Positions 9,900 to 25,457 of a DNA stretch of 32,000 nt are shown piece after piece. The position numbers and the translations under genes were made by a program. Numbering within the stretch: the stretch's first letter is position 1; each line of letters opens with the position of its first letter. Source of the stretch: Promethearchaeia archaeon (lineage in GTDB: Archaea; Asgardarchaeota; Lokiarchaeia; Sigyniarchaeales; SOKP01); NCBI GenBank assembly GCA_046497275.1, contig JAWOFX010000134.1, positions 5,368-37,367 of the forward strand, in the 5' to 3' direction. The notes below the pieces were generated by a model that saw only the letters and a program-made list of their open reading frames with translations, was not told the origin of the DNA and did not search any database.

Positions 9900-9940
9900 T
9901 TATGAGATATTCTTTTTTTTTATTATATTTAATTTTTTTT
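9900..9940. terminator. T-rich archaeal-type terminator region after ferritin
   Basis: Two oligo-T tracts (TCTTTTTTTTT and TTTTTTTTT) immediately after the ferritin stop, between convergent genes. Confidence 0.45.
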
Positions 9941-10623
9941 TAGATAAACTCAAGAGAAAATTCTACAATATCATTTTCGAAATCCATTTTTTCAATCTGA
10001 GCCCTAACCTTCAAATTTAGCTTTTTTTGGATAGATTTTTCAATAACGCCCATCATAATATAAAAATGAATTTGCATAAATCTCCCAAGTTCTTTTATAT
10101 TACTCAGACGATATATGGCTCTCTTCTTATGCTCATCTAATTTAGTAATAACATTTATTTTATTTCTATAGACAAATTGAACGAATGGAATCATGCTTCC
10201 AAAATAAGTTAAAAATTTATCCACGGACTTTCCGTTGTTTTTTGGGAGAACTTCTGCGGGTACTTTCGAACCGTAAGGAAAATCCATATAATCAGCTATT
10301 TTTTTTCCTATCATTTTTAATTTTTCTTTATCTTCAATGAACTGGTCTAACCCATTCAACAACCCCTCAAAATACGAAAAGACCATTTCTCTGGGAATTA
10401 ACTGGCTTTTGGAACTATAATAGAGTTTATACGCACCAATTTCTTTGAAAAATACTTCTTGCCGTTCTAACAAAATCGCTATATATTTTCCAGCAGTAAC
10501 GCGAGAGGTATTTATACCCTTTGCGATATCAGTGATGGTTACCCCTGAAGGATTATGATCAATGAAGGCGATAATTTCCTCTCTATACTCCTCAGCAGAC
10601 TTTTTGTTCTTTGATTTTTTCAT
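9940..10623 (-). CDS. Winged-HTH protein with C-terminal putative ligand-binding (V4R-like) domain
   Basis: GVTITDIAKGINTSRVTAGKYIAIL...KEIGAYKLYY is a wHTH. The C-terminal alpha/beta domain with HFYIMMGVIE resembles a paralog family I associate with Lokiarchaeia. Confidence 0.75.
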   Translation of the reverse strand: MKKSKNKKSAEEYREEIIAFIDHNPSGVTITDIAKGINTSRVTAGKYIAILLERQEVFFKEIGAYKLYYSSKSQLIPREMVFSYFEGLLNGLDQFIEDKEKLKMIGKKIADYMDFPYGSKVPAEVLPKNNGKSVDKFLTYFGSMIPFVQFVYRNKINVITKLDEHKKRAIYRLSNIKELGRFMQIHFYIMMGVIEKSIQKKLNLKVRAQIEKMDFENDIVEFSLEFI

Positions 10624-10658
10624 TTTAAAGTAGTTTATTTTTTTAATTAAAAATAATC

Positions 10659-12173
10659 TTAATTGTACGCATCTCTTTCTGGATACCGTGGATATAATCT
10701 AATTATTTCTCTTAACATTCGATCAGTCAATTCCTTTCTAAGATTTTCATCATCCCATAAATTATTCATTTCATCGGGATCTTCCTTCAGATTATAAATA
10801 TCTCCAAACTCAGGTAAGCTTTCATATATTGTATACCTAAAAGTTTCAGTAACGAGGGTGCGTAATCTCATAATCTTATCTTTGGCTATCTCCTCATCAT
10901 GTTCTATTAAAATTTGGTCGCGAATTTTTTTATCTGGATTCTCTAAAACTTCGGTAAAATCATACCCTTGCATTCGTTTTGGATGATATTTTTCTCTGAT
11001 TCCTAACATATTTAAGATTGTTTTTGGCAGATCAATTGTTGAAATGAGTGAATTTGAAACCTTATTTACCGATTTACCAGGAACTTTCCATAAAAGTGGT
11101 ATATTAATTAAATTATTGTAATGTGCGGGACCTTTCAATATTAAACCATGATCTCCACATAAATCCGCATGATCACTTGTGAAGATAATCATTGTATTTT
11201 CAAAAAGTCCTAATTCATTTAATTTTTCCAATATCGCTCCGACACCATCATCAATCATGGAAATAGATCCATATGTTAATGCGGTAAATTTTTTAGCAGT
11301 TTTTTCATCAACTTTTTGAGGTAATAGATGTCTAAACCGAGCATCCTTTATATGTTGACCCAAAAATGGATGTTCAAGCAAATTTTCACCGTCTTTGAAA
11401 CTAGGTGGTAATATGATATCTTCAGGTGAGTAAAGATCCTTATATTTTCCCGGAGGACAGACCGGATGATGTGGATCATTATAAGAACAATGCAAAAAGA
11501 AGGGTTTATCTCCATACTCTCCTTCTGAATATCTCTCAAAAAACGCAAGAGTTTGTTCGGTTATATAATGAGTAGGGTAAAGCTCCTCAGGCAACTCAGT
11601 CTCATAATAATTTTCATTTATAGCCAGAAATCGGTTTTTTAACTTATCTATATTTTCATAATTTTGCTCTTTTAGCCATTCAAAATAATGCCCTCCCATC
11701 ACATCTCCATGTCCAACTGTTAATAAAACCTCATCAAATCCATAATAAGGGGTCGGAAATGGATTTGGAATTTGTCCCATCATCCATGCGGAGATGTCTT
11801 CCAGAGAAGATACATTTCTACTAAAGGGATGAGAAAAAAAATTGAAATGGGTTTTCCCAATCGAAATTGTATGGTATCCTTTCTCTCTTAAGCTGTCTGC
11901 TATCGTTTTTTCTTCTGGATTTAAATTAATTCCATTTGATCTGGTTCCATGAACACTTGGATAAGAACCTGTGAAAAAATTTGCTCTATTCGGCATGCAA
12001 ATCGGAGTATTGCAATAATAATTCGTAAATCTAACTCCATCCTCACCGATTTTATCAATATTTGGCGTCTTGAGAACTCGATTCCCATAACAACTTAAAT
12101 GATCTGTTCTTTGCTGATCGGTAATTATAAACAATACATTGATCTTTTTGCTCATTTTTGAATCATTTTCCAT
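10659..12173 (-). CDS. Cys-type sulfatase-family hydrolase (copy A)
   Basis: NVLFIITDQQR, CMPNRA (CxPxR), GKTH, DPHHP, FTSDHADLCGDHGL, LYNL..DPDEMNNLW. Confidence 0.95.
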   Translation of the reverse strand: MENDSKMSKKINVLFIITDQQRTDHLSCYGNRVLKTPNIDKIGEDGVRFTNYYCNTPICMPNRANFFTGSYPSVHGTRSNGINLNPEEKTIADSLREKGYHTISIGKTHFNFFSHPFSRNVSSLEDISAWMMGQIPNPFPTPYYGFDEVLLTVGHGDVMGGHYFEWLKEQNYENIDKLKNRFLAINENYYETELPEELYPTHYITEQTLAFFERYSEGEYGDKPFFLHCSYNDPHHPVCPPGKYKDLYSPEDIILPPSFKDGENLLEHPFLGQHIKDARFRHLLPQKVDEKTAKKFTALTYGSISMIDDGVGAILEKLNELGLFENTMIIFTSDHADLCGDHGLILKGPAHYNNLINIPLLWKVPGKSVNKVSNSLISTIDLPKTILNMLGIREKYHPKRMQGYDFTEVLENPDKKIRDQILIEHDEEIAKDKIMRLRTLVTETFRYTIYESLPEFGDIYNLKEDPDEMNNLWDDENLRKELTDRMLREIIRLYPRYPERDAYN

Positions 12174-12213
12174 TTATTGATTGATTTATTTTTAGAATAA
12201 TTTTTATTATGAT

Positions 12214-13359
12214 CTATACTTCATTATCAGCCTTACTAAAGAATTCTTCTTCTGTTGGAGGGTAATATATCTCTACTTCACCTTCTTTATCGATCTTTTT
12301 TACGTATTCTCTTCCCTCCTCATCAATAAAGACTTTTCCAGAAGTTTTTAATAATTTTAACAATTCGACTCTCTTTTTTGGATCAGCAACGCATATAAAA
12401 TTACAATTTCCGCATCGAGGATTAGTATCTTTCAAAGGTCTTTCTGCCACATTTTCTGTGGAACCTACTTTCCCGTATGATTTAAGTATTTCCCTATTAA
12501 ATTTCTTCAGATTTTCTGGAGTATTTTCATCTAACAGGATTTTTCTCATTATTTTTTTAACAAGCATAGGATCATCTTTCCATTCTTGATTACTATATTC
12601 TTTCAAACAGATATGATCCGCACTCCAAGTGCTCCAATCTCCATCCTCTGATAAACCTGTCAATCCAGCACATCCAATAGCACATTTAGAATAAATCCCT
12701 CGTTTTGCATATACTTCTTTTTTTCCTCCAATAATAACTTCTTGAGTTTCCTCTTCCTGTTTCTTATCAAAAAACCCAGTTGTACACGCTTGATAACATA
12801 TCATACATTTATTACAGTGATTTTCTTCTGCCATTGGATCTGGTTCCAAACGTGCTGTTGTTAAGACTCCTCCGAGATATAACGAGCCACCATATTCTTC
12901 AGTTATTAAATTCCCTGACCATCCTATATGTCCCAATCCTGCTGCAACTGCGCCGTATCTTAATGAAAAATCAGGGTATGACTTATCGTCCTTAAAAATA
13001 TTCGAATAACCTCCCTTTTTTCTATATTTGCCATTTGGAATAACCGCAAATGCTTTAAAGTTAGTATTCTCTTCAATAAATTCTTTAATTTTAACAGCTG
13101 TTTTCCATGCGGTAGTATAAGCAAAATGTTGGAATTTTTTAAGACTCATTCTTTCTCTCTTGGCAAAATAATTTTCTAATGCTTCAATGGGATTGGGATA
13201 TGCCCATATTATACAACTTTTTGCATCTGGTAAAGAATATTCCATATCTGCGGAAGGAGGAGCATCTTTTAACCTTTCTCTATTACCTACACCAACTAGT
13301 TTTGCGCCTGAATCTAAAACTATTTTCTTAATCTCTTCTTTCAATTCATTTAAATTCAT
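12214..13359 (-). CDS. QueG/RdhA-like 4Fe-4S (probably cobamide-dependent) reductase
   Basis: DFSLRYGAVAAGLGHIGWSGNLITEEYG..YLGGVLT is the QueG/RdhA core. Fe-S motifs are CNKCMICYQAC and a split second cluster (KCAIGC ... RCGNCNFIC). Confidence 0.8.
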   Translation of the reverse strand: MNLNELKEEIKKIVLDSGAKLVGVGNRERLKDAPPSADMEYSLPDAKSCIIWAYPNPIEALENYFAKRERMSLKKFQHFAYTTAWKTAVKIKEFIEENTNFKAFAVIPNGKYRKKGGYSNIFKDDKSYPDFSLRYGAVAAGLGHIGWSGNLITEEYGGSLYLGGVLTTARLEPDPMAEENHCNKCMICYQACTTGFFDKKQEEETQEVIIGGKKEVYAKRGIYSKCAIGCAGLTGLSEDGDWSTWSADHICLKEYSNQEWKDDPMLVKKIMRKILLDENTPENLKKFNREILKSYGKVGSTENVAERPLKDTNPRCGNCNFICVADPKKRVELLKLLKTSGKVFIDEEGREYVKKIDKEGEVEIYYPPTEEEFFSKADNEV

Positions 13360-13377
13360 ATTAATTTATTTAACATA

Positions 13378-14304
13378 TTATTTTGGTTCGAGATGAAATT
13401 TCATTCTATCCTTCCCTAAGATGATCTCTCCATCGAAAACTTCCTTAACTCCATTTAAATACATTTTTTCTGCCTTCTCATTGGGTAGATATGGAGTGAT
13501 ATGAACAAATACTAATTTTTTTGCATTTGCGTCTTTTGCTAATTCTCCTGCTTTTACTGGATTCATATGATAATTTTGAATATCAGTTAAGATCTTTGCG
13601 TATCTATCAAATTTAAGTTTCTTTGCCCCCGAAACTATATTATTGAGCATTTTATAAGAAATAGCTTCACTAAAAAGGATGTCAGCATCTTGACAATGGT
13701 TTGCTAAATTTTCTGTTTTTACTGTATCCCCCGTGATCGCGATAACATTCCCTTTATATTCTATTCTATACCCAAATGCAGGTTCAATAGGTGAGTGATC
13801 GACTAAAAAAGCAAATACTTTTAATTTATTTCTTTCAAAACATAGTTTTCTTTCATCTTTATTCTCTATTAAAATTGGCTTGCTTATCATTTTACCATTT
13901 TCTAGTGAAAGAATCTCTAATCCATGATGTGCTATTCTATATCCTGTATCTAACTCATATGCCATTTCGAATCCTTTAACTACTCTATCTACTCCTTTAG
14001 GACCATATACTTCCAATGCTTTTTCTCTTCCATTTACCCATGAAAGCATATTTGCTTCTCCAAGGTCACCTATATGATCAGAGTGGAAATGAGTAAGGAA
14101 TATTTTACTTAGTTTTCCTGCGGGAAGTCTCAATACATCAACATTTCTATATGAACCCGGTCCCACATCAAAAAGAAGGAATTCTCCGTCTGCTATTATA
14201 GCAATACTAGAGGCTACTCTTTTATCATTATTTATGGGACCTCCAGACCCCAACAAAAACACATGAAGTTTTCCGTCCATAAGAATTTTATCTTGACTTA
14301 TCAT
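13378..14304 (-). CDS. MBL-fold hydrolase of the RNase Z / AtsA arylsulfatase-like group
   Basis: LLGSGGP, DVGPG, THFHSDH, VDH..PAFGYR, ITGDT, YH and LVFVH motifs. The context favours a small-molecule hydrolase over the housekeeping tRNase Z. Confidence 0.85.
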   Translation of the reverse strand: MISQDKILMDGKLHVFLLGSGGPINNDKRVASSIAIIADGEFLLFDVGPGSYRNVDVLRLPAGKLSKIFLTHFHSDHIGDLGEANMLSWVNGREKALEVYGPKGVDRVVKGFEMAYELDTGYRIAHHGLEILSLENGKMISKPILIENKDERKLCFERNKLKVFAFLVDHSPIEPAFGYRIEYKGNVIAITGDTVKTENLANHCQDADILFSEAISYKMLNNIVSGAKKLKFDRYAKILTDIQNYHMNPVKAGELAKDANAKKLVFVHITPYLPNEKAEKMYLNGVKEVFDGEIILGKDRMKFHLEPK

Positions 14305-14317
14305 CTCTTCTTATCTC

Positions 14318-15166
14318 TTATTCTTTTTTTTCCTCTACCAATTTTCTATCAATCAATTCTTTCATATATTTAAATCCTGGAGTTAAATTTTCTGTTAAAT
14401 TTAGTGGGATCATTGATTTAATTGGAAAGCCAAGACCTTGCCTCCCTCCTGTTTTAAACAGATTTTGAAGTATATAAAAGATATGATCGGCGGGCATTCC
14501 AATTCCAATCTCATGATCTTGAATTCCAGCAAATGATCTATCGCCTGATCCGGGAATAACAATTTGGGCTTTTCGAGTGAGAAACGGCATTAAACTTCCT
14601 TTTCCACAAGATTCTCCAAAACCTTCAAAACTTGAATTTATACTATATTTTTTTTTATGTTCAAAACAGAGAGCATGAATTATGTGAGTTATTTGTGCTC
14701 CATTCCCAAACACTAAAATAGTATCAGGAATGAGGGGTGATTTATGTAATGGATATGAAATCAATCCGCAATATCCAAGTTCCATGATATTCTTAAAATT
14801 ACTTGAATATAATTTTTTAGCTCTTCTAATCTCTGCTTTTTCATCCTTATGCCATCCTTGACGGACTTGGCTTTCAATGAATTCCTCTTCTGAGATCTTT
14901 ACCCAACCATGGGCAACCGTAGAAGGTGTACAAAAATTATCCGCTGCGGTAATGGCGTAATTGTTTCCAAATCTTCGAGACATATAGAATGCTTGGCATA
15001 TACTCATTCTTTTATCTCTCTTAGAAGGTTGAATTGCCTCTTTGGGTATTTCCGACTCATCTTTAATGTATTTTATTCCAATTGGATAACTTTGAAAATG
15101 AAGTTCATCGTAAAGCTCTTGACCTGCTTTTTGGAACTCCTCTAAATTCTTATTTTTACCTGACAT
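14318..15166 (-). CDS. DUF169-family protein (COG2043-like), paralog 1
   Basis: YPIGIKY, ICQAFYMSRR, NFCT, PDTILVFG, GESCG, PGSGDR and IGIGMP follow the DUF169 pattern. Confidence 0.85.
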   Translation of the reverse strand: MSGKNKNLEEFQKAGQELYDELHFQSYPIGIKYIKDESEIPKEAIQPSKRDKRMSICQAFYMSRRFGNNYAITAADNFCTPSTVAHGWVKISEEEFIESQVRQGWHKDEKAEIRRAKKLYSSNFKNIMELGYCGLISYPLHKSPLIPDTILVFGNGAQITHIIHALCFEHKKKYSINSSFEGFGESCGKGSLMPFLTRKAQIVIPGSGDRSFAGIQDHEIGIGMPADHIFYILQNLFKTGGRQGLGFPIKSMIPLNLTENLTPGFKYMKELIDRKLVEEKKE

Positions 15167-15178
15167 TTCTAATTAATC

Positions 15179-16006
15179 TCAATTATCTTTTTTTATTCTT
15201 TTTCTTAAATATGGCCATACACCAGGTTCATTAGGACTTCCAAATATATCTAATGGACCCAATGAGGCGTTTAAATTTGGAATCCCAAAGGGTTTGGGAT
15301 TGATCTTATTACCGGCTAAAAATAAATTATCATTAACTTCTTTTAACTTAGATTCTGGAATAGAAAAAATCATCTCGAAATCTTGTACTCCCGCGAGAAC
15401 GCGATCTCCCATACCCGGAGCTACAACTTGACATTGATTTGTTGTAAAAGTTCTAATTATGCCCTCTTTACAAGAACTTTCCATTCCATTGAAATAACTT
15501 GTTATATAATCACCATTATAAGTAGCTGATAGGATTAGATGGGATAATATTAACGGCGTACAATAAATCATTATCACATCGGGAATTATAATAGATGCGT
15601 GTAGAGGAGAAACAACTAAACCCTTGAACTCTCCAAATTCAAGCGTAGCATCACATTCTCTTGATCCTTTTTCTGCTACCATATTTTTTTTATATCCTGC
15701 TTTTTTTTCCCATGCTTCAAACACGACATTTGGATCATCCACTTTTTCAAAGCCAAAATTACGAATAGAAATTGGTTTACACACAATATCTTCTCCTTTT
15801 AAAAAGAATGAAAATCCTGAACGACGACACCATGTGTAACTTAAACAAGCGGGAATTTCTCTTCCAAATACATCGAGAGGTCTTAAGGCATTGGATGAGA
15901 CTTCTTCATTTTCTTTAATCAGTTTAACTGCGATCGGATAAGTCTGAAGTTTTAATTTATCAATTAGTTTTTGTCCTATTTTCTTATAGGTTTCTAAATG
16001 CTCCAT
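15179..16006 (-). CDS. DUF169-family protein, paralog 2
   Basis: YPIAVKL, PACLSY, IVCKP, PDVIMIY, ESSC, PGMGDR, MIFSIP; strong GGAGG RBS. Confidence 0.85.
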   Translation of the reverse strand: MEHLETYKKIGQKLIDKLKLQTYPIAVKLIKENEEVSSNALRPLDVFGREIPACLSYTWCRRSGFSFFLKGEDIVCKPISIRNFGFEKVDDPNVVFEAWEKKAGYKKNMVAEKGSRECDATLEFGEFKGLVVSPLHASIIIPDVIMIYCTPLILSHLILSATYNGDYITSYFNGMESSCKEGIIRTFTTNQCQVVAPGMGDRVLAGVQDFEMIFSIPESKLKEVNDNLFLAGNKINPKPFGIPNLNASLGPLDIFGSPNEPGVWPYLRKRIKKDN

Positions 16007-16025
16007 TTCTATTCCTCCGAACTTT

Positions 16026-17300
16026 TTATTTTTTTTGAGATTTAATCCTCGATTTAATCTGTTTAGCTCCGTTATTTATAATATTACGAACGATAAATGA
16101 GGGTTCTTCTTTCATTTTCTTGTTTAAAATATCATATTTAAGTTTTAACGCTTCCAATGATTTGTCTTCCCCTAAAGAATCCTCTCCTTGAATAATAACA
16201 TCCAGCATATGAAGTGCTAGTTGATATTCCTGATTATCATAAAGTTTTTTTGCATGGTTGAGATATTTTTCAGGTCTATTTATTTTCAAAAATTCTTGAG
16301 CGATTTTATGTGATTTCGCTGGAAAAAGGTCAGTTGGATTTCCCGTATCATACCAACCGTGATATAATCTATATACTGCATGTATGGCAAAACGATAGCT
16401 GCCATAAAGAGGCTTGAGATATTCATGATTCTTGAACTTATCAGGATATATTTCTAGCATTTCATGGAATATTTGTTCAAACCATTTTCCTTCATTCAAT
16501 CGTTTAACAACTTCGTCATGAACAAAATGCATAGCTTCAGCGGTAATTTCTAAAACATCCCTTACTTTATCTTTTCCCTCTATCATTTTCCCATGACCTG
16601 GGATAATATATTTTGCATCTTTTTCCATCATATGTTCCATTGCCATTGCCCATCCTTTCGGATATCGTTGCACTTTATAAGGATTTCCAACATTTGGATA
16701 TGAGGAAATCATCAGATCTCCACTACAAATTAACTCCTTCTCTGGAACCCATAACCAACTGGAATCGTCTGTCTCTCCAATATCATGATTAACTTCAAAC
16801 TCTATTCCTCCAAATTCAAACACAAATGGTTCTTTACCATCGAGGATTATTGTTGGATATAAAACTTCATGGGGAGATATTACCTCATCATCCTTTCCCA
16901 TAACGGAACCAAATTGCTGAGCATTTAGCCATTTATGATATCCATCAAGCATCTGATATTTCTTAAATCTTTTAACTACATTTTCATGCGCAATTATTTC
17001 CGGCATTTCCCATCCTTTCTCTTTAATTTCTGAAATAAATGGCTCAAACCCATAAGAATGGTCGAAATGACCATGACTATAAATAATGTACTTTATAGGT
17101 TTTTCAGTAATGCTTCTAATAGTCTTAAAATTGCGGGGACCGAACTGCTTTAATCCAATATCAAACATTACCAATCCATCGTCCGTTTCTATAATCCCAA
17201 CATTTCCAAATGACGGGATCAAATGAACGGTATTATCTTGTACACTCTTGGGAGGATACATACCGAGGAAAAACTTAATATCATCTTGAGAATAACTCAT
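16026..17300 (-). CDS. Alkyl/aryl-sulfatase-like MBL-fold hydrolase (SdsA/BDS1-type catalytic plus dimerisation domains)
   Basis: IIYSHGHFDH, GETDD..WLWVP, SGD....YPN, IPGHG, and YRLYHGWYDTGNPTDLFP matching the dimerisation-domain motif; no C-terminal sterol-carrier domain apparent. Confidence 0.85.
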   Translation of the reverse strand: MSYSQDDIKFFLGMYPPKSVQDNTVHLIPSFGNVGIIETDDGLVMFDIGLKQFGPRNFKTIRSITEKPIKYIIYSHGHFDHSYGFEPFISEIKEKGWEMPEIIAHENVVKRFKKYQMLDGYHKWLNAQQFGSVMGKDDEVISPHEVLYPTIILDGKEPFVFEFGGIEFEVNHDIGETDDSSWLWVPEKELICSGDLMISSYPNVGNPYKVQRYPKGWAMAMEHMMEKDAKYIIPGHGKMIEGKDKVRDVLEITAEAMHFVHDEVVKRLNEGKWFEQIFHEMLEIYPDKFKNHEYLKPLYGSYRFAIHAVYRLYHGWYDTGNPTDLFPAKSHKIAQEFLKINRPEKYLNHAKKLYDNQEYQLALHMLDVIIQGEDSLGEDKSLEALKLKYDILNKKMKEEPSFIVRNIINNGAKQIKSRIKSQKK

Positions 17301-17364
17301 TTTTTATCTTCTTTATTTATATTATGTAATTTTTTAAATTTGAAACAATTAATTTTAAAGATTT

Positions 17365-18228
17365 TTATTTTTTATATCCTTGCGGACAGATTTTTAAACA
17401 ATAGGAACAGTAATTATTATCTAAAATACTTTGTATACATTTCGATCTGTCTATATGGGTAATATGTGGAGAATTATCGCGTTCGATGGGGTCCTTGTAG
17501 GCCGCATTTCCTTTACATTCTCTCACACAAGCACCGCACCCCTCACAAAATTCTTTTAATGCATCTAGATTTCTTTTTTCAGATTCAGGTATCTCAGCAT
17601 CAGTCGTTATAATGCTCCATCTTTGACGGGGTCCAAACTCAGGTGTAATGATTAATCCATTCTGTCCTTTAATGCCGAGTCCTGCTGCGACTGCGTGTGG
17701 ACCATATAATAGTTTTCCACCAAATGGATGGTGCGCTTCGCTTTTATATCCCTTACTTTTTAAATACTCCGCCAGTCCAATAGTCACATCTCCCAATACT
17801 TTATAGACTCGAAATACTTCAATTTCACAAATTGCGCTTGGGGCTGTTTTAATTTTATCCCATTTCATCTCCATTCCCAACACAATCGCATTTTTTCCAT
17901 ATACTTTTAAATTATGAAAAATAAATCTCTCGTCTACTGGAGTATAACCAATAAAATCTACATTTAATTCTCTAGCTTTGGCTTCAAAATCTTTCCAAAA
18001 TTGAGGAGTTGTTTGGGTTTTAGTATTATTTTCATTCCCATATTTAGTCTTTCGAGCATCTTGAAATCCTTTAAACGTCCCTCTAATATATTTACTAAAT
18101 TCTTTTGCCAAATCACGATCAATGGTTTCCGCTGGACCTGCACTCATATTAAAAAGCTCTTTAGGGACAATAAACTTGAGATCTTCATTCTTTCCTACAT
18201 ACGTCGGTTCTATTTCTATTTTTGACAT
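17365..18228 (-). CDS. Reductive dehalogenase (RdhA)-like / QueG-like 2x[4Fe-4S] cobamide protein, no Tat signal
   Basis: VDFIGYT, NAIVLGMEM, AEYLKSKGY..EAH, AVAAGLG..GQNGLIITPEFGPRQRWSIITTD, FCEGCGACVREC and C-x9-CSYCLKICP. Confidence 0.82.
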   Translation of the reverse strand: MSKIEIEPTYVGKNEDLKFIVPKELFNMSAGPAETIDRDLAKEFSKYIRGTFKGFQDARKTKYGNENNTKTQTTPQFWKDFEAKARELNVDFIGYTPVDERFIFHNLKVYGKNAIVLGMEMKWDKIKTAPSAICEIEVFRVYKVLGDVTIGLAEYLKSKGYKSEAHHPFGGKLLYGPHAVAAGLGIKGQNGLIITPEFGPRQRWSIITTDAEIPESEKRNLDALKEFCEGCGACVRECKGNAAYKDPIERDNSPHITHIDRSKCIQSILDNNYCSYCLKICPQGYKK

Positions 18229-18319
18229 TTCTTAATCAAATCAATTGTTCTTTTATTTTCAATAAAACTTTATTTTTGGAACTTTGTTAAATAATATTTT
18301 ATATGTCAATCTTCGTGAT

Positions 18320-19432
18320 TTATTCTCGATTTTCTTCATATATTGTATTTTGTAGGATGGCGGGATTTTTAAATAATTTATTTCGATCTTCTCGATGAAG
18401 AGTAATAGCTTTTGTAGGACATGTAACCGCACAAACTCCACATCCATAACATTTATTTGGATTAACATCGGCTTTCTCATCGATTAATGTGACTGCGTCA
18501 AAAGGACATCTCTCTACACATAATCCACATCCTTTACAGAGACCTTTATCCACTTTTGATACATAATTTGATTTTGCTAAACAGTTCTCATTTTTATCTT
18601 CAAATCTCGTCATACCCCTCACGAAGGCACAACAGCACTCACAACAGCAACATAAAACCTGGTGATTAATATTATCATGATTTTCCGTAGTAAAAACCAA
18701 TCCTGCTTTTGCAAACTTATCAACTAACTCCTTCGCCTCTTTAATTGATAATTCTCTGCCCTCTCCTCGTCTAATAAAATATGATCCAAAGAATCCTAAT
18801 TGAAAACATGAATCCTCTACAGGATATTTTCCTTTGCATTCTCTTTCGCCAAGAATCTCTTTCCGCTTCCTACAAGGACAATCTGTTATTACGATGGGCT
18901 TTTGACAATCCTCTAAGATTCTATGAACTTCCTCAACGTATAATATTTCTGTTTCATAATTTATTGACTGCTCTACAGGGACTACTCGCATTAATGAGGT
19001 GCCTTTATCAGATGTTTCATATCTCTTATAAAATTGTTCATCTATAAAGAATCTATTATATAACTCTGCCCCCTTCTCTCCCAACCGTTCTAAGGCTTTG
19101 GAATATTTATATCCTACATTGAATAAATGCGCGATGGTGAGAAAATACGAATATCCTCCAATATCTTGAATTATCCCCTTATCTGCCATATCTTCTAAGA
19201 TTTTTTCAACTTCTTCTTTTTCTTTTCCAATTTTTTTCGCTAAAATTCTTACAGATTGTGGTTTAACTCGAAGATATTGTGCGATCTCAGCCTCTTCAGG
19301 AGTAAATAGTAATTCGATAAATTCTCTGAATGCTTTAGATACCTTTCCATCCGTAATAGGGATATCTTGTGGATATTCTCGCATATTTTCTATTATTTTT
19401 TCATAAGGGTTTTTATCTTGTGAGTTTGTCAT
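18320..19432 (-). CDS. 4Fe-4S dicluster protein with N-terminal helix-turn-helix-like region and Cys-rich central domain
   Basis: LFTPEEAEIA, DCPCR, SCFQLG, LCCCCECCC, then two ferredoxin motifs CKGCGLCVERCP and CYGCGVCAVTCP. Confidence 0.85.
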   Translation of the reverse strand: MTNSQDKNPYEKIIENMREYPQDIPITDGKVSKAFREFIELLFTPEEAEIAQYLRVKPQSVRILAKKIGKEKEEVEKILEDMADKGIIQDIGGYSYFLTIAHLFNVGYKYSKALERLGEKGAELYNRFFIDEQFYKRYETSDKGTSLMRVVPVEQSINYETEILYVEEVHRILEDCQKPIVITDCPCRKRKEILGERECKGKYPVEDSCFQLGFFGSYFIRRGEGRELSIKEAKELVDKFAKAGLVFTTENHDNINHQVLCCCCECCCAFVRGMTRFEDKNENCLAKSNYVSKVDKGLCKGCGLCVERCPFDAVTLIDEKADVNPNKCYGCGVCAVTCPTKAITLHREDRNKLFKNPAILQNTIYEENRE

Positions 19433-19501
19433 TTTTCATAACTTAATTACTTTTTTTCAATTTAGAAGTGTTCTATATTACTTTCTTCTTGAACTATTTA
19501 A

Positions 19502-19574
19502 AGATTTACACTGCAGATTTACAATAGTGATAAGATTTATAAATAAAAAAATTCAATATTAATTTATAAATCTT
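19502..19574. promoter_or_regulatory. Divergent promoter core with repeats
   Basis: AGATTTACA at 19502 and 19515 and AGATTTATA at 19533 (direct repeats); perfect 13-bp inverted repeat AAGATTTATAAAT (19532-19544) / ATTTATAAATCTT (19562-19574), each arm containing TTTATAAA. Confidence 0.55.
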
Positions 19575-19626
19575 TTGTTTAGTATGAAAAATTAAAAACC
19601 TAAAGTGGCTTAAAAATATTATAACG

Positions 19627-19660
19627 TATACAAATTTAATATTAAACTAGTATTTGTATA
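19627..19660. promoter_or_regulatory. Inverted repeat upstream of the right-arm DUF169 gene (candidate operator)
   Basis: TATACAAAT (19627-19635) -N16- ATTTGTATA (19652-19660), a perfect 9-bp inverted repeat ending 23 bp before ATG 19684. Confidence 0.4.
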
Positions 19661-19683
19661 AAAAATTCCATGAGATTAAAAAA

Positions 19684-20535
19684 ATGTCAGAAATTATAGA
19701 AGAATTTAGAACAACGGGACAAAAATTCTATAATAAACTCAGATTATTAACTTATCCAGTTGCGATAAAATTTATCAAGGATTACGAGGAGATTCCAGAA
19801 GAAGCCCACAGACCTTCCAAGATTGGACAAACAATTACTTTATGTCAAGCCTTCACGATGGCACGACGCTGGGGAGAGCATGTTGCTATGGCCTATGAAG
19901 ATAATGCATGCATAACTAGTTCTCTTGTTCATCAATGGAAAAAGGTTCCAATTAAAGATATAATTGAATCCCAGATAAAATCTGGCTATCATAAAGATGC
20001 AAAAGCTGAAATAGCGGTTCAATCTCAATATAGTGCTTTAGCAAAGAAGGAAAATTATCTCAAAATCAAGGATCATGTAGGATTCATCGTCTCTCCTCTC
20101 ACTAAAACGATTGTGGAACCAGATGTTATTCTAGTTTATGGGGATCCCGCTCAGATGACGCATATCGTACAAGCATTAAGCTATGAGGGAAAATACCTTG
20201 TAAATTCTTCATTTATTGGATTTGGAGAGTCATGTCTTAAAGGTGTCCTAATACCATATATTACAGATAAGCCGGAGGTTGTATTGCCTGGTACTGGAGA
20301 TAGAACACTCGCATTAACAAAGGAAGAGGAGATGGCCATAGGTATGCCAGCCAAACTCATTTCATATGTCAATGAAAATCTTTTCAAATCAGGAGAATCA
20401 TTCAATATGGGAGAACCATCGAGATTTTTTGTTGGAAATATCCCCGAAGGGTTTGGACCACCAGCATGGAGCTTTTTAAAGAGAAAGGTAGAAAACCAAG
20501 AAAAGAAAAATGCAAAAAAAGAAAACTCAAGCTAA
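19684..20535 (+). CDS. DUF169-family protein, paralog 3
   Basis: ATG 19684 is preferred over the track's TTG 19654 by comparison with paralog N-termini. Motifs: YPVAIKF, LCQAFTMARR, NACIT, PDVILVYG, GESCL, PGTGDR, MAIGMP. Confidence 0.87.
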   Translation: MSEIIEEFRTTGQKFYNKLRLLTYPVAIKFIKDYEEIPEEAHRPSKIGQTITLCQAFTMARRWGEHVAMAYEDNACITSSLVHQWKKVPIKDIIESQIKSGYHKDAKAEIAVQSQYSALAKKENYLKIKDHVGFIVSPLTKTIVEPDVILVYGDPAQMTHIVQALSYEGKYLVNSSFIGFGESCLKGVLIPYITDKPEVVLPGTGDRTLALTKEEEMAIGMPAKLISYVNENLFKSGESFNMGEPSRFFVGNIPEGFGPPAWSFLKRKVENQEKKNAKKENSS

Positions 20536-20593
20536 TTTTTCATACAAATCAAATTATATTTAATTAAAAAATTGAATAAGATGAATAAAAAAA

Positions 20594-21874
20594 ATGGAAA
20601 ACAATAGTTCAGAGCCCGTGAGTAAAAATTATTTTAGATATCTCGTATTTGTTTTAGTTTTAGTCCAATTAATCGATTCCTACAGCACTTCTTTCCCAAC
20701 ATTAGTCCCAGACAGCATAATAAATGAATTTCTCTCTGGGTTTACCAATCCTGAATCTATATTTGCTTTTGTAATTGCATTAGCATCGGTTGGTATGTAT
20801 TTTTGTGCATTTAACACCTATTTATCTGATAGAATAGGAAGAAAAACCATGTTAGCAGTGACAGTCTTTGGAATGGTACTTATAGCAATTTTAATTAACT
20901 TTTCCACTAGCATCATTGATTTTACTATATATCTATTCTTTTTATGGTTTTTTACACGATCTGACGTATGGATGATATATATAGGAGAAGAAGCTCCCAA
21001 AGAAAAAAGAGCTTTTTGGACTAATATTATCTTAATTTTTGGATTAGCCGGGGCAATTTTAGCCCCAATTGTCCGATCTAGATTCATTACTGAAACAACT
21101 CAAAACTGGAGAGGTATAACGTGGTTGGTTATAATAATAGGTGTTCCTTTAGGGCTATTAATTCTATTTACTCTAAAGGAGCCGGTTATCTACACTGATA
21201 TGAAAAAAGATTTAGATTCAAAGCAGAGAATAAATACTCTAAAAGAAAATATTTCCGGTATTTTTAAATCTTCCAATGGAACACAAATAAAAGTCTGTTT
21301 AATTATAAGTTTTATTTTCGGGATGAATTCAATCTTCAGAAATTTAGTAGTACGAGCTGTTTCCTTAAGTCCATATTTAACCCAAGATCAAATTAGCTTA
21401 ATGATGTTAATTGGAGTTGTTGCTGTATACATGGCGGTTATTTTGATCGGAACTCTTGCAGATAAGTTTGGTCGCCTTCCATTACTCTATTTCTTTTCAG
21501 TCATGATTCCTATTGCGAGAGTTATGTTTGCATTAGTGGCATTTCAACCGCTTTTAACTTTTCCCCTGACCGTGATATTTACGAGCATGTCAGAATTTGG
21601 CTATTGGGGCGGATGGATTACTCTTAGTATTGTTATACTGGAACTTGTTCCAACAGAAGCTCGTGGGAGTGGAAGTGGATTAAAATCGTTCTTTGGTGCA
21701 TTTGGAATAACAGTCGGCTTTCTCTCGACGAGTGTATTTACTTTATTTTTTGATCTAAGTATTTCATTCGTTATTCTGGGCCTATTTACAATCATTGCTA
21801 TCCCACTAATATATAAATATTTGAAGGAAACGAAAAAGGTTGATATGAGAGAGATTTCCAAGTTAAAAACATAA
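20594..21874 (+). CDS. Major facilitator superfamily transporter
   Basis: About 12 hydrophobic segments, with motif A in both halves (LSDRIGRK, LADKFGR), EEAPKEKRA, and ELVPTEARG. Confidence 0.92.
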   Translation: MENNSSEPVSKNYFRYLVFVLVLVQLIDSYSTSFPTLVPDSIINEFLSGFTNPESIFAFVIALASVGMYFCAFNTYLSDRIGRKTMLAVTVFGMVLIAILINFSTSIIDFTIYLFFLWFFTRSDVWMIYIGEEAPKEKRAFWTNIILIFGLAGAILAPIVRSRFITETTQNWRGITWLVIIIGVPLGLLILFTLKEPVIYTDMKKDLDSKQRINTLKENISGIFKSSNGTQIKVCLIISFIFGMNSIFRNLVVRAVSLSPYLTQDQISLMMLIGVVAVYMAVILIGTLADKFGRLPLLYFFSVMIPIARVMFALVAFQPLLTFPLTVIFTSMSEFGYWGGWITLSIVILELVPTEARGSGSGLKSFFGAFGITVGFLSTSVFTLFFDLSISFVILGLFTIIAIPLIYKYLKETKKVDMREISKLKT

Positions 21875-21888
21875 AAAGTTGATTTAAC

Positions 21889-23397
21889 ATGAGTGAAAGG
21901 ATGAATGTATTATTTATAATTACAGACCAACAGAGAGCAGATCACTTAGGATGCTACGGAAACCCAATATTAAATACTCCTAATATTGATAAGATCGCGG
22001 ATGAGGGAGTACGCTTTACAAATGCGTATTGTGCAAATCCTATGTGCATGCCAAATCGTGCAACGTTGTTAACGGGTTTATTTCCTAATGCACATGGAGT
22101 CAGGAGTAACGGAATAAATCTTCCTGAAGATATTCCTACTATTGCTGAAACTTTACGAGAAAGAGGATGGTATACGAAGTCTATAGGAAAAACCCATTAT
22201 CAATTTAATTTTCCTCCTTATAAACGATCTTCAGAATCAGCGGAATTGATCTCTGAATGGATTCGACCTAAAACTGTGGAGAAAAAGAAAAAACGGTTTG
22301 AATCTCCTTATTATGGATTTGAAGATGTCGAAATTACACTAGGTCATGGAGATTTAGTCGCTGGGCATTATCTTGATTGGTTAGAAGAACGATCTCCGAA
22401 ACACGCTCTTGAGATTAAGAAACGATTTACTAAATTTTTTGATAATCTTATGTATGAAACATCATTGCCAATAGAATTATATCCGACTACTTATGTAAAA
22501 GAGAGAACCATCAATTTCTTTGAAAAATATAAAAAAGGAGATTTTGAAGATAAACCATTCTTTCTTCATTGTTCTTTTCCTGATCCGCATCATCCTGTCT
22601 GTCCCCCCGGAAATTATTATGATATGTTTGATCAAGATAAAATTGAATTACCAGAAAGTTTCGATGATGCTGAGAATCTTTACGACCATCATTTTCTGGG
22701 AAGATATTTAAAAGACCCAATATTTCGTGGGGCTTTACTACGAGAATCCTCTGAAGAAGATGCTAAGAAATTCCTTGCACTTACATACGGTTCAATTTCT
22801 ATGATCGATCATAGTGTAGGGGAGATATTAGCCTCCTTAAGTAAATTGGGATTAGAAGATAATACTATGGTGATTTATACGAGCGATCATGGTGATTTAG
22901 CGGGAGATCATGGACTATTGCTTAAAGGCCCATCACCCTATAAAGGTATACTTAATGTTCCATTGATTTGGAAAGTGCCAGAGATAACAGAAAAAGGTAT
23001 TTCGGATTCTTTAATCAGTTCAGTTGATATTCCAAAAACAATATTGGAATTATTGAACATAAAGGAGCGCCACCAACCACCCGATATGCAGGGTTATGAT
23101 ATGACACCCATTTTACAGAATCCAAACGAGACGGTTAGAGATTGTTGTTTGATTGAGGAAGACGAGGAAGTAACAAATATTCAAATACGACTACGTCATT
23201 TAATCACAGATAAATATAAATTAACGGTTTACGAGGGATTTGATAAAGGTGACCTTTATGATTTAGAAGCGGATCCGAATGAATTAAATAATTTATGGGA
23301 TACACAGAAGGAGATACGTAAGGAGTTGGTTTATAAGTTATTACAAGAAAATCTAAAAGTGCAAGCAAGATACCCAAAACGAGAATCTCTTACATAG
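21889..23397 (+). CDS. Cys-type sulfatase-family hydrolase (copy B)
   Basis: NVLFIITDQQR, CMPNRA, GKTH, DPHHP, YTSDHGDLAGDHGL, LYDLEADPNELNNLW; 14 bp after the MFS gene. Confidence 0.95.
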   Translation: MSERMNVLFIITDQQRADHLGCYGNPILNTPNIDKIADEGVRFTNAYCANPMCMPNRATLLTGLFPNAHGVRSNGINLPEDIPTIAETLRERGWYTKSIGKTHYQFNFPPYKRSSESAELISEWIRPKTVEKKKKRFESPYYGFEDVEITLGHGDLVAGHYLDWLEERSPKHALEIKKRFTKFFDNLMYETSLPIELYPTTYVKERTINFFEKYKKGDFEDKPFFLHCSFPDPHHPVCPPGNYYDMFDQDKIELPESFDDAENLYDHHFLGRYLKDPIFRGALLRESSEEDAKKFLALTYGSISMIDHSVGEILASLSKLGLEDNTMVIYTSDHGDLAGDHGLLLKGPSPYKGILNVPLIWKVPEITEKGISDSLISSVDIPKTILELLNIKERHQPPDMQGYDMTPILQNPNETVRDCCLIEEDEEVTNIQIRLRHLITDKYKLTVYEGFDKGDLYDLEADPNELNNLWDTQKEIRKELVYKLLQENLKVQARYPKRESLT

Positions 23398-23517
23398 GAG
23401 ATCAATAAAACTATTCATAATTTTTAGAATTTCAATTTTTCTTTTAAAAAATATTTCTACTTTTTTTCTAAAAAAATAAAATGAGTATTTAGAATTATTA
23501 ATTTAATTATTTGTGTT

Positions 23518-24231
23518 CTACTCTTCCTTAGTAATAAAACGCTTCATCCAGTCAGGTAAAGCAAATCCTGCATATACTCCAAATAAACTTGGTATGAAAA
23601 ATATCAGAGGTAACACCGAAATATTTGTAATTGAAAAGAAAACTCCTCCCACAGCAAACAATATGACTCCTAGTAATATCATTTTTGCTTTAAATCTAAC
23701 TTCTGCGCTCGGAGAATCTTTAGATTTATACCAAATCAAGAATCCTGTTAATAATAAGATAACAAGTCGAATTAAATTGCGAATTCTTAGAAATAAGCCA
23801 TGGGATGCCATAATCGTTCCACTTATGCTTCCTATCAACGGTTGATTAGTAAATAAGAGTACATAAAATAATATTATTAAAATTATGAGATATACTGAAT
23901 ATATCCCAATAATTATTTTCTTTTTGCTTTTATAAGTCATGTCTGTAAACGCCAAAAGCCAAAAGAAAATACCAAACGTAAATCCATAACCCAAGATGTA
24001 GTATATCTCAAATGGAAGTGCTTGACTAACGATTAGAAACGAAATAAACGAAATAGATATAGGTAACCAAGGAAAGGACATGAAAAAGATTGCGATACCC
24101 GTGTATAATAAACGCTTATCTTTATATTTATAATAATTCCTAAGAATTGATATTCCTATATAGAAGAAAAAAACGTTTATTATTATAGCGACGATTCCAT
24201 TAAAAAATTCTATAGGTGGTAATGTTGCCAT
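23518..24231 (-). CDS. Hypothetical multi-pass (about 7 TM) membrane protein
   Basis: 237 aa, about seven hydrophobic helices with basic cytoplasmic loops; no recognisable catalytic motif. Confidence 0.7.
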   Translation of the reverse strand: MATLPPIEFFNGIVAIIINVFFFYIGISILRNYYKYKDKRLLYTGIAIFFMSFPWLPISISFISFLIVSQALPFEIYYILGYGFTFGIFFWLLAFTDMTYKSKKKIIIGIYSVYLIILIILFYVLLFTNQPLIGSISGTIMASHGLFLRIRNLIRLVILLLTGFLIWYKSKDSPSAEVRFKAKMILLGVILFAVGGVFFSITNISVLPLIFFIPSLFGVYAGFALPDWMKRFITKEE

Positions 24232-24408
24232 TTTTTAATCATTAATGATTATTTTTGAACTACTTATATAAGTTTCAACATAAATATATTTCGAATACCA
24301 TAAAGTCCAAATTTTCTATTAAGATGAAAATTTATTTAGTCCAATGAAGAATTATATTAATTAATCTACCCAAATAATAGGTATTAAACAAAAAATAGAG
24401 TGAATAGT

Positions 24409-24867
24409 ATGGTACATGAAGAAAATACTAAGGTTAGTATTCAGCTTGATAAGGATTTAATTTTTAAGTCTCTTTTTGATTTTGAAAAAACAAGAGAAAT
24501 TTTTATAGATGAGACATTAGAGGAGACCGAACAAATGATTGGTCCCGATGCAGCAACCTTATTAGGCATGACCGTTATCAGTTGCTTAAGCGCGAGCTTT
24601 ATATTCTGCTTAAATAAAAGAAATCTCACGATAGATGATTTAGAAGCTTCAGCAGATATTTCTTTTTACAAAACAGAAAAGGGATATCAACGCATTGAGA
24701 ATATAGATGTGAAAATGAAACCGAAAACAGATGATCCTGATGTTTTAAAAAGGATAAAGCAATGTACTCGGGAGATGAGAAGCGGGGATATGTTTTTTGA
24801 GGAAACTTGCATAATCACTCCATCAGTAAGAGAAGGCATCAATATTAAGGTAAATGTTGATTTATAA
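24409..24867 (+). CDS. OsmC/Ohr-family protein
   Basis: GPDAATLLGMTVISCLSAS (first Cys) and CIITPSVREGINIKVNV (second Cys, C-terminal pattern). ATG 24409 follows GAGTGA; GTG 24400 is an alternative start. Confidence 0.8.
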   Translation: MVHEENTKVSIQLDKDLIFKSLFDFEKTREIFIDETLEETEQMIGPDAATLLGMTVISCLSASFIFCLNKRNLTIDDLEASADISFYKTEKGYQRIENIDVKMKPKTDDPDVLKRIKQCTREMRSGDMFFEETCIITPSVREGINIKVNVDL

Positions 24868-24977
24868 TCATCTAATTTTTTATAAAAATATAAGAAATAA
24901 AAATAGAAGTTAAAATTTTAAGATAAAATTTAGTTGTTAGAAATGGAGAATCAATTTTTAAAATTAAAGAAAAAGAG

Positions 24978-25457
24978 TTATTGGCTTTTATTTTTAATTT
25001 CTTGAACAAATTGATCGATTTTTTCTTGGTATTTATCTTCCTCTATTTCTTTTTGGATAATATGAGCTGTAGCGATAGGATCCTTTCCACAAAATTCACT
25101 AATGCTTTCGATCAATGGATCCCCTTTTTTTCCAGAAGATGTTATTAAAATGGCCACTTTATTTAGTTGATCCTTATATCTTGTAATATAAGTTCTAAGA
25201 GCAGGGGTCATTTTCCCAGCCCAAGTGGGCGTCCCTAAAATTATTAAACCATAATTACTCGGGTCTTTTTCCATATCTTCAATTTCTGTCAATTTTTCAC
25301 GAACCGCCTGATATCCAGAATAAAACCATCTAACAAATCCGGATCGTTTTGTCTTGTCAATTATCTCATCCAGCTCAGCATCTAATTTCGCCGCGATTTC
25401 TTCTGCCATTTTTTTTGTATTTCCCGTTCTTGTGTAGTAAACTACTAAAGTATTCAT
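24978..25457 (-). CDS. Flavodoxin-family protein
   Basis: LVVYYTRTGNTKKMAEEIA FMN-binding loop; IILGTPTWAG. Confidence 0.92.
   Translation of the reverse strand: MNTLVVYYTRTGNTKKMAEEIAAKLDAELDEIIDKTKRSGFVRWFYSGYQAVREKLTEIEDMEKDPSNYGLIILGTPTWAGKMTPALRTYITRYKDQLNKVAILITSSGKKGDPLIESISEFCGKDPIATAHIIQKEIEEDKYQEKIDQFVQEIKNKSQ

Follow-up and report, generated by a model that had tools for sequence, protein, structure and literature searches.

A divergent gene island of sulfatase-type hydrolases, DUF169 paralogs and RdhA/QueG-fold proteins in a Lokiarchaeial genome

The window analysed here is a stretch of 32,000 nucleotides (contig JAWOFX010000134.1, positions 5,368 to 37,367) from the genome of a Promethearchaeia archaeon of the Lokiarchaeia (assembly GCA_046497275.1), which is 3.85 Mb in size and 98.9% complete and for which the close homologs were found in Promethearchaeota/Lokiarchaeota metagenome-assembled genomes (MAGs), among them those of the isolates BC1 and BC3 from Baja California. 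The window contained an island of 11 genes in two divergent arms, located at positions 10659-23397, which probably serves to degrade small sulfated molecules taken up by the cell. The left arm, on the reverse strand, contained the genes for FeS370, Rdhl287, SdsAl424, DUF169b, DUF169a, MBLz308, QueGl381, and Sulf1, in this order and separated by gaps of 91, 64, 19, 12, 13, 18, and 40 bp, and the right arm, on the forward strand, contained the genes for DUF169c, a major facilitator superfamily (MFS) transporter, and Sulf2, separated by gaps of 58 and 14 bp (Table 1). The arms, gene order and gaps reported in a first-pass annotation matched the coordinates of our open reading frame (ORF) map exactly, and the family names that it had proposed for the 11 genes were upheld by searches against Pfam and NCBIfam and by sequence and fold searches against the PDB.

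Table 1. Features of the island and its borders, with positions numbered from the first nucleotide of the window (aa, amino acids; MBL, metallo-β-lactamase fold; AF2, AlphaFold2)
Feature	Position	Strand	Basis
HTH227, putative winged-helix regulator, 227 aa	9940..10623	-	weak HTH_11 match
Sulf1, S1 sulfatase, 504 aa	10659..12173	-	PF00884 + SGSH_C
QueGl381, RdhA/QueG-fold protein (predicted), 381 aa	12214..13359	-	AF2 model + Foldseek
MBLz308, RNase Z-type MBL hydrolase, 308 aa	13378..14304	-	Lactamase_B_2; 8gyg alignment
DUF169a, 282 aa	14318..15166	-	PF02596
DUF169b, 275 aa	15179..16006	-	PF02596
SdsAl424, SdsA/Pisa1-type MBL, 424 aa	16026..17300	-	PF00753 + PF14863
Rdhl287, compact RdhA-like Fe-S protein, 287 aa	17365..18228	-	TIGR02486 below cut-off; PceA/NpRdhA alignment
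FeS370, Cys-rich ferredoxin-like protein, 370 aa	18320..19432	-	Fer4 families
Divergent intergenic region	19433..19683	.	two TATA-like boxes
DUF169c, 293 aa (TTG 19654) or 283 aa (ATG 19684)	19654..20535	+	PF02596
MFS transporter, 426 aa	20594..21874	+	PF07690
Sulf2, S1 sulfatase, 502 aa	21889..23397	+	PF00884 + SGSH_C
hyp237, ~7-TM (transmembrane) protein of no known family	23518..24231	-	hydrophobic segments

Four of the genes encode predicted hydrolases that, as judged from domains, motifs and structure matches, fall into three unrelated sulfatase-capable families, in agreement with the first-pass annotation. The Sulf1 and Sulf2 proteins, which were 54% identical to each other, matched PF00884 with 154.4 and 171.1 bits, respectively (Pfam gathering cut-off 25), and both contained an SGSH_C domain and the formylglycine motif C-M-P-N-R, located at residue 59 in Sulf1 and at residue 53 in Sulf2. 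No signal peptide was found in either protein, and since both begin directly with the catalytic domain they were assigned to the cytoplasm. The best NCBIfam model was that of the arylsulfatase PRK13759, to which Sulf1 scored 239 bits against a cut-off of 481, and both proteins scored below every NCBIfam equivalog cut-off. In the PDB sequence search, the nearest solved structure to Sulf2 was 4upi, described as a “sulfatase family protein” (E=2.3e-51). The genome contained about 12 sulfatase genes and exactly 1 true anaerobic sulfatase-maturing enzyme (anSME), encoded at G000:C171:13370-14440, which scored 420 bits to TIGR03942 against a cut-off of 349. A third S1 sulfatase gene was noted on the contig of the island, at positions 1-256 of the window and running on to the left (G000:C157:4127-5623). 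It is divergent from a gene for a protein of the uroporphyrinogen decarboxylase (URO-D) family (492-1592), a family that includes corrinoid-dependent methyltransferases.

The MBLz308 protein contained a Lactamase_B_2 domain with the metal motif H-F-H-S-D-H at residue 72, and it aligned end to end with the PDB entry 8GYG, named “Arysulfatase” (E=1.6e-21), which we take to be an enzyme of the AtsA type. Its identification as a ribonuclease Z (RNase Z) was rejected, because it scored no higher than 130 bits where the cut-off is 252 and the top PDB match was an arylsulfatase; the protein reached none of the NCBIfam cut-offs for RNase Z or GntH. Since the sub-threshold likeness extended to RNase Z, PNGM-1, and GntH, the substrate of MBLz308 is not fixed by these matches. 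The SdsAl424 protein, which is encoded by a single-copy gene in the host genome, matched PF00753 with 66.6 bits and the alkylsulfatase dimerisation domain PF14863 with 79.5 bits, contained the motif H-G-H-F-D-H at residue 76, and aligned to residues 133-527 of Pisa1 (4av7) and to SdsA1 (2cfu). The protein stopped after the dimerisation domain, with no C-terminal domain (PF14864) resembling sterol carrier protein 2 (SCP2); the SdsA homologs in Chloroflexota were full-length and contained PF14864. The transporter matched PF07690 with 91.9 bits.

Two other substrate classes were considered for these enzymes. A main activity on non-sulfate esters or ethers, such as phosphonates, phosphate mono- or diesters and aryl methyl ethers, which would make the island a locus for organophosphorus or aryl-ether scavenging, was judged to be quite unlikely. 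The presence of three different sulfatase-capable families in one cluster argues against it, as do the repeated co-localisation of orthologs of the SdsA-like protein and the S1 sulfatases and the naming of the closest solved relative of MBLz308 as an arylsulfatase. It is also at odds with the S1 enzymes, both of which retain the formylglycine motif and score best to arylsulfatase models and structures. In its favour, the second-best NCBIfam matches of the S1 enzymes include the phosphoric/sulfuric ester hydrolase PehA, and the PDB neighbours include the phosphonate monoester hydrolases 2w8s and 4upk. A non-sulfate activity would also fit with the alkylsulfatase-related ether hydrolase DnhAB and with the hydrolases encoded in related Chloroflexota loci, which resemble nucleotide pyrophosphatases/phosphodiesterases (NPP) and are without the C/S-x-P-x-R motif. 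As for sulfated sugars or amino sugars, such as glycosaminoglycan or mucin-type fragments taken up via the MFS transporter, genes for glycoside hydrolases, sugar kinases or isomerases were absent from the island and its flanks in the window, and neither the SdsA- and AtsA-type MBLs nor the RdhA-like reductases have a known role in glycan metabolism. Such a substrate is highly unlikely, although both sulfatases contain SGSH_C, the second-best PDB match was the N-acetylglucosamine-6-sulfatase 5g2v, and a beta-hexosaminidase of glycoside hydrolase family 20 was encoded beside a module of sulfatase, QueG-like, DUF169, and FeS370 genes in another Promethearchaeia MAG (L073:7252-13832).

The C-terminal 170 residues of the Rdhl287 protein matched PceA (8q4h, E=1.4e-19) and NpRdhA (4ras; residues 109-283), and two Fe-S motifs were identified at residues 228 and 274. 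In a pairwise alignment, examined for Rdhl287 only, Y142 was aligned with the catalytic tyrosine of NpRdhA, Y426, and R203 with K488, the position of the catalytic Lys/Arg. The protein showed no signal for twin-arginine translocation (Tat), in that no RR motif was present within the first 40 residues, and no small ORF with 3 TM segments of the RdhB type adjoined the gene. The QueGl381 protein had no Pfam match and scored 24 bits to TIGR02486. A structure model inferred with AF2 from an alignment of 38 sequences had a predicted local distance difference test (pLDDT) value of 91.6, with a beta-rich C-terminus at residues 340-381, which looks unlike a HEAT repeat such as that of the tRNA-binding domain at the C-terminus of QueG. 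The significant Foldseek matches to this model, 46 hits in total, were to QueG, PceA, and NpRdhA only, followed by MMACHC, and the top matches were 5d0a, 5d0b, 5t8y, and 5d6s with a probability of 1.00. Eight cysteines were invariant in the 38 homologs, and two [4Fe-4S] sites were predicted. As judged from the model, QueGl381 is a genuine RdhA/QueG-fold protein, yet it belongs to neither of the two curated families. The RdhA/QueG identity proposed in the first-pass annotation was hence borne out for the fold and the Fe-S motifs, but not for family membership, with scores far below both curated family cut-offs. It was also noted that one QueG-like ortholog was called as an ORF of 769 amino acids (L094:1456-3765), perhaps because a downstream domain is fused to it.

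The FeS370 protein consisted of a helix-turn-helix (HTH)-like N-terminus, the motifs C-P-C-R and CCCCECCC, and a 2x[4Fe-4S] ferredoxin domain (Fer4 at residues 293-345), and nine extra cysteines were invariant in 18 homologs from Asgard archaea and bacteria. These features make it a candidate electron donor. A role as sulfatase maturase was rejected, because the protein had no radical-SAM or SPASM domain and the true anSME was encoded elsewhere in the genome. A second FeS370-like gene, for a protein of 373 amino acids (177 bits), was located directly upstream of another sulfatase gene in the host genome (G000:C172:25663-28321), with another copy about 9 kb away.

Alkyl sulfates can alkylate Co(I), and a reductive desulfation in which the sulfate ester itself is the target of the cobamide proteins, with sulfate leaving like a halide, is thus chemically plausible on general grounds. 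In this case the organosulfates would be used as electron acceptors, or they would be deoxygenated. The scheme is suggested by the recurrent proximity of genes for RdhA/QueG-fold proteins to those for sulfate-ester enzymes. We nevertheless regard this scheme as very unlikely, since it is without precedent, the reaction would have to compete for its substrate with the four hydrolytic sulfatases of the island, and neither a membrane-bound respiratory partner, a Tat signal nor RdhB was found.

The three DUF169 paralogs matched PF02596 with 130.6 bits (DUF169a), 112.2 bits (DUF169b), and 147.6 bits (DUF169c), against a cut-off of 27. Their pairwise identities were 30% to 43%, of which those of DUF169b to the other two were 30% to 32%, and all three keep C64, R71, D83, C86, C194, and the motif P-G-x-G-D-R, found as P-G-S-G-D-R at residue 205 in DUF169a and as P-G-T-G-D-R at residue 212 in DUF169c. 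The AF2 model of DUF169c had a pLDDT value of 92.9, and Foldseek identified no structural relative in the PDB at E<=1e-3; nor was any match obtained for DUF169c in the PDB sequence search. In a wide VIA-align search with the DUF169 model the best Z value was 5.0, to thiolase/PfaB-like halves, which is below the noise level of the tool, and no function was inferred from it. A complex prediction for FeS370 and DUF169c gave a score of 0.00 and, being without controls, counts neither for nor against binding. In the literature, members of the family have been mentioned incidentally near SepRS (PMC8762117), in a table of selenium co-occurrence (PMC5322559), and beside a TauE-like permease in D. alaskensis (PMC4001038), in each case with no function established.

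Each of the DUF169 genes had a preferred neighbor. Wherever the cluster was complete, the gene for DUF169a adjoined that for MBLz308, the gene for DUF169b adjoined that for the SdsA-like MBL in the window and in the loci L022, L050, and L137, and the gene for DUF169c was paired with that for FeS370, with a gap of 2 bp in L048 and an overlap of 8 bp in L049, suggestive of translational coupling. On a metagenome contig of 1.5 Mb (L042:969-12632), three FeS370-like genes, a nitroreductase gene, genes for alpha/beta hydrolases and DUF1330, and three tandem DUF169 genes preceded a VcrB/RdhB gene and a genuine RdhA gene with PF13486, a link between DUF169 and a canonical dehalogenase operon. On a Dehalococcoidia contig (L043:2065-15766), a DUF169 gene was located between genes for two molybdo-hydroxylases and a dihydroorotate dehydrogenase-Fer4 (DHODH-Fer4) protein, followed by genes for four HGD-D subunits and a BcrAD activase, a context of the aromatic-ring or dehydratase type.

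To study the conservation of the island, we used Rdhl287 (60 relatives), DUF169c (species-representative genomes), QueGl381 (metagenome contigs), and the SdsA-like protein (relatives) as anchors, and counted the enrichment of the other members with our own ORF calling and phmmer. The search for DUF169 loci used a narrow alignment, so that distant DUF169 clades are under-sampled. The gene order was kept in independent assemblies at 73% to 93% protein identity. Among the congeners, G002/BC3 contained the cluster without DUF169b and G004 the cluster without FeS370 and DUF169c, and on the metagenome contig L137 the order was identical at about 92% identity. The MFS gene was located between the genes for DUF169c and Sulf2 in G002 and L137, and it was conserved also in G004. 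G028 contained a larger related cluster and G010 part of one (both g5), and rearranged or expanded versions were present in other Lokiarchaeial genera (G028/L051, L097, L101, L071, L052, and L164), of which L097 and L101 were rich. Sub-modules recurred in Helarchaeota and Chloroflexota. According to the first-pass annotation, its proposal would be refuted if the gene set were not conserved as a cluster in other genomes; such conservation is seen in G002, G004, and L137 and around three anchors.

Around each of the anchors DUF169c, QueG-like and SdsA-like, the other members were enriched 5- to 55-fold, where the ratios are descriptive and not probabilities since the loci are related, non-independent and partly overlapping between anchors. 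With QueGl381 as the anchor, about 19 of 66 loci contained partners, and the counts, which cover 529 kb and for which the expectation was taken from the density in the host genome, were 8 observed versus 0.14 expected for the SdsA-like MBL, 5 versus 0.14 for the RNase Z-type MBL, 10 versus 0.96 for DUF169, 9 versus 0.96 for FeS370, and 9 versus 1.65 for the sulfatase. Among 14 Asgard loci anchored on DUF169c, a QueG-like gene was present in 10, an SdsA-like gene in 6, and a sulfatase and an FeS370 gene in 5 each; the host genome has a single QueG-like and a single SdsA-like gene. Orthologs of the SdsA-like protein were identified in 25 of the 36 genomes of the family. An ortholog of the S1 sulfatases of the cluster was located within 10 kb (<=10 kb) in 7 of 20 SdsA-like neighbourhoods, from five other genera, and an FeS370 ortholog was present in 6 of the 20. 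Two Chloroflexota genomes contained genes for TetR, DUF169, a full-length SdsA and a QueG-like protein, and one of them (L058) also had two NPP-like genes of the alkaline phosphatase (AP) superfamily without the C/S-x-P-x-R formylglycine motif. Weak flavodoxin-like matches (Fld159, 22-25 bits) were noted between QueG-like and DUF169 genes in L052, L075, L076, and L164.

The length of the intergenic region is 221-251 bp depending on the start codon of DUF169c, for which ATG 19684 is likelier than TTG 19654 because the alignments of the homologs begin there; the 250-bp region at 19433-19683 described in the first-pass annotation fits with the ATG start. The region contained two TATA-like boxes, at 19532-19547 and 19559-19574, which form a near-palindrome (inverted repeat I3, 94% complementary). 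The core was invariant in three assemblies and the flanks varied. The boxes are consistent with paired divergent archaeal promoters, a weak reading in a genome of 30% GC, and the inverted repeat is possibly an operator for the winged-helix protein HTH227. The gene for HTH227 is located 35 bp past Sulf1 on the same strand, as the last gene of the left arm, and its orthologs adjoined the cluster sulfatase gene in G002 (72% identity) and L084, the latter of which runs on into the same ferritin/racemase flank as the window. More distant homologs were found within the related clusters of G028 (32% identity) and L052, L071, L097, and L101 (114-189 bits). At the other end, the gene for hyp237 is convergent with Sulf2 and encodes a protein with about 7 hydrophobic segments and no Pfam match, homologs of which were encoded beside the cluster in G004 (74%), G028 (45%), and L101. 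Since homologs of both genes sit beside or inside the cluster in relatives, HTH227 and hyp237 probably belong to the island, which would then extend over 9940-24231. The GC content was 0.30-0.36 throughout the island and the same as in the flanks; with no compositional signal, a recent horizontal transfer of the island was rejected. Directly to the right of the island, OsmC-like and flavodoxin-like genes were noted (24400-25457). A gene for a DUF401 protein is located about 6 kb from the island (29468-30658) and another about 2 kb from a DUF169 gene on an unrelated contig (L044:6576-7892), which may be a coincidence.

We interpret the locus, with moderate confidence, as an accessory catabolic island of two divergent units that are expressed from a shared promoter region and that combine the desulfation of organosulfates with a reductive module. 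The MFS transporter would import one or more small sulfated organic compounds, from which sulfate would be removed in the cytoplasm by two formylglycine sulfatases, matured by the anSME, and by two MBLs, one of the SdsA and one of the AtsA type. The two RdhA/QueG-fold proteins of the reductive module, which have no Tat signal and are likely to bind cobamide along with two [4Fe-4S] clusters, would then reduce the freed or still-esterified carbon skeleton with electrons supplied by FeS370, and the three DUF169 paralogs, each paired syntenically with one hydrolase or Fe-S protein, may contribute an accessory or catalytic step. The substrate class, the use of cobamide, the direction of electron flow, and the order of the reactions are as we infer them. 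Intracellular desulfation of imported small organosulfates is the best-supported candidate for the core function. The main evidence is that three unrelated sulfatase-capable families converge at the locus, as they do in other genera; the transporter, the cytoplasmic location of the enzymes and the maturase add to it. The import, desulfation and reduction suggested in the first-pass annotation were in part sustained: cytoplasmic enzymes beside an MFS gene, in a genome with an anSME, fit with import followed by intracellular desulfation, and the functional coupling and the sulfate-ester theme held up, but dehalogenation or C-O/C-S cleavage would be conjecture. Some reductive step, be it dehalogenation, deoxygenation or another reaction, is probably coupled to ester hydrolysis, because the link between hydrolases, RdhA/QueG-fold proteins, DUF169, and ferredoxin-like proteins recurs statistically and phylogenetically.

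Several observations weigh against this interpretation. Rdhl287 scored 65.8 bits to TIGR02486 against a cut-off of 160.35 and had no match to PF13486, and QueGl381 scored 48 bits to the QueG model TIGR00276 against a cut-off of 200, over residues 137-200 only. Because both proteins are far below the curated cut-offs, dehalogenation or epoxide reduction is not to be assumed. CobS was not found in the 98.9%-complete host genome, so that any cobamide must be salvaged; CbiM is present. On the side of the hydrolases, the nearest relatives of the S1 enzymes include promiscuous arylsulfatase and phosphonate-monoester hydrolases, and the SdsA family does not consist of sulfatases only, as seen from the relationship of DnhAB, a hydrolase of the ether 2,4-dinitroanisole (DNAN), to alkylsulfatases (PMC11631463). 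There is also the non-independence of the loci behind the enrichment ratios. Finally, Rdhl287 is part of the cluster only in this genus and in a few other genomes (G028 and G010), and its orthologs in about 10 other genera (59% to 79% identity) were without the cluster neighbors, as were about 47 of the 66 QueG-like loci and 8 of the 20 SdsA-like neighbourhoods without any partner nearby.

In 9 of 13 loci, the off-island orthologs of Rdhl287 (L023-L036, for example L027:5894-9499) formed a divergent pair with a gene for an SNF2-family helicase of 1200 amino acids, and a 915-amino-acid fusion of FrhB, Fer4 and pyridine-nucleotide-disulfide oxidoreductase domains was encoded nearby in 5 loci. 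About 24 longer “solo” QueG-like loci had no common neighbor, and clustering of the solo QueG-like and the bacterial DUF169 loci by their neighbors revealed no regular partner apart from a short-chain dehydrogenase/reductase (SDR) in a few Syntrophaceae. Since Rdhl287 is mostly located elsewhere and many QueG-like and SdsA-like orthologs are partnerless, the gene set is, as far as gene neighbourhoods indicate, a kit of modules rather than a fixed operon, and the one linear pathway drawn in the first-pass annotation was not sustained.

This raises the alternative that the island is a toolbox of independently shuffled detoxification or scavenging modules (ester hydrolases, RdhA-like reductases, DUF169 and ferredoxin) that act in parallel on various compounds, natural or xenobiotic-like, and are co-located where accessory genes accumulate, which we consider possible but doubtful. 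That each member is often found without the others is as expected from such a toolbox, and so are the variable numbers of paralogs, with 1-5 QueG-like genes per locus, and the mini-modules elsewhere in the host genome, where an FeS370-like gene is located directly upstream of a sulfatase gene (C172) and an MBL gene beside a DUF169 gene (C180). Within the genus, the set at the ferritin/racemase spot was full in the window but reduced in G005/BC1, and in G002 the full set was present with the ferritin gene about 3 kb further away, which marks the spot as an accessory locus that has been remodelled in place. Yet the tight spacing and the single divergent promoter region argue for co-regulation, the pairings of DUF169a with MBLz308, DUF169b with the SdsA-like protein and DUF169c with FeS370 are kept across genera, and the pairing of DUF169, SdsA and QueG-like proteins is kept across domains, in Chloroflexota.

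A bolder form of the catabolic-island interpretation is that DUF169, the QueG/RdhA-fold proteins and FeS370 form a new cobamide/Fe-S reductive system that acts on sulfate or other esters and is shared by Asgard archaea and Chloroflexota, either by removing the halogen from halogenated organosulfates (bromophenol sulfates or chlorosulfolipids, for example) or by reductive C-O-sulfate cleavage, with DUF169 as a new Cys3-ligated metallo- or Fe-S fold. We consider this unlikely. Were the reductive module to act on sulfate esters or their aglycones, B12-dependent reductive chemistry would be extended beyond halides and epoxides.

For DUF169, a family that is widespread in anaerobes but has neither a function nor a solved fold relative, the results provide a reproducible context of MBL or sulfatase-type hydrolases and RdhA/QueG-fold proteins in two domains of life. 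Most of the “RdhA-like” genes that Lokiarchaeia have in this island differ from the published Loki RDase and fall outside both the dehalogenase and the QueG family as curated, and we caution that they should not be counted as potential for organohalide respiration. With this island, the breakdown of organosulfates in the cytoplasm becomes a candidate niche trait of the Asgard archaea that live in sediments and mats, which could guide the choice of enrichment substrates for cultivation. No publication on this gene set was found in the literature searched, and to that extent the statement in the first-pass annotation that no such pathway has been described still holds.

The components of the island can be compared with known systems. 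Sulf1 and Sulf2 resemble S1 sulfatases such as 4UPI and PRK13759 in the PF00884 fold, the C-x-P-x-R motif, the N-terminal D-Q metal-site residues, which were aligned to 4UPI, and the presence of an anSME in the host genome, but they differ in being cytoplasmic, in scoring below the cut-offs of all equivalogs, in having Asn at the fourth motif position, and in having genes for B12-reductase-like and DUF169 proteins as neighbors instead of glycan-utilisation genes. MBLz308 belongs to the same RNase Z-like MBL subfamily as the arylsulfatase 8GYG and aligns with it over the full length, although the identity is low and MBLz308 has sub-threshold likeness to RNase Z, PNGM-1, and GntH as well. SdsAl424 shares the binuclear-metal H-x-H-x-D-H MBL domain and the dimerisation domain with the type III alkylsulfatases SdsA1 (2CFU) and Pisa1 (4AV7), but is cytoplasmic and is without an N-terminal part of about 100 residues and the SCP2-like tail. 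Like PceA/NpRdhA, QueG and the cytosolic RdhA-like proteins, the reductase-like proteins have the cobalamin-binding core fold and two [4Fe-4S] motifs, and as in the cytosolic RdhA-like types there is no Tat signal and no RdhB (PMC12219181). However, Rdhl287 is 287 amino acids long compared to an average of about 395 for the described RdhA types, and the surveys in which “simplified cytosolic” RdhA-like proteins were described mention no link to sulfatases or DUF169 (PMC12219181). The published Loki RDase (PMC6737245) corresponds to a separate gene in the host genome, C75, with other neighbors. The Chloroflexota loci L058 and L067 likewise encode DUF169, an SdsA-type alkylsulfatase, a QueG-like Fe-S protein, and, in L058, AP-superfamily hydrolases, but the archaeal island has true formylglycine sulfatases instead of NPP-like proteins and a winged-helix regulator instead of TetR, and adds FeS370, the compact RdhA-like protein, and three DUF169 paralogs.

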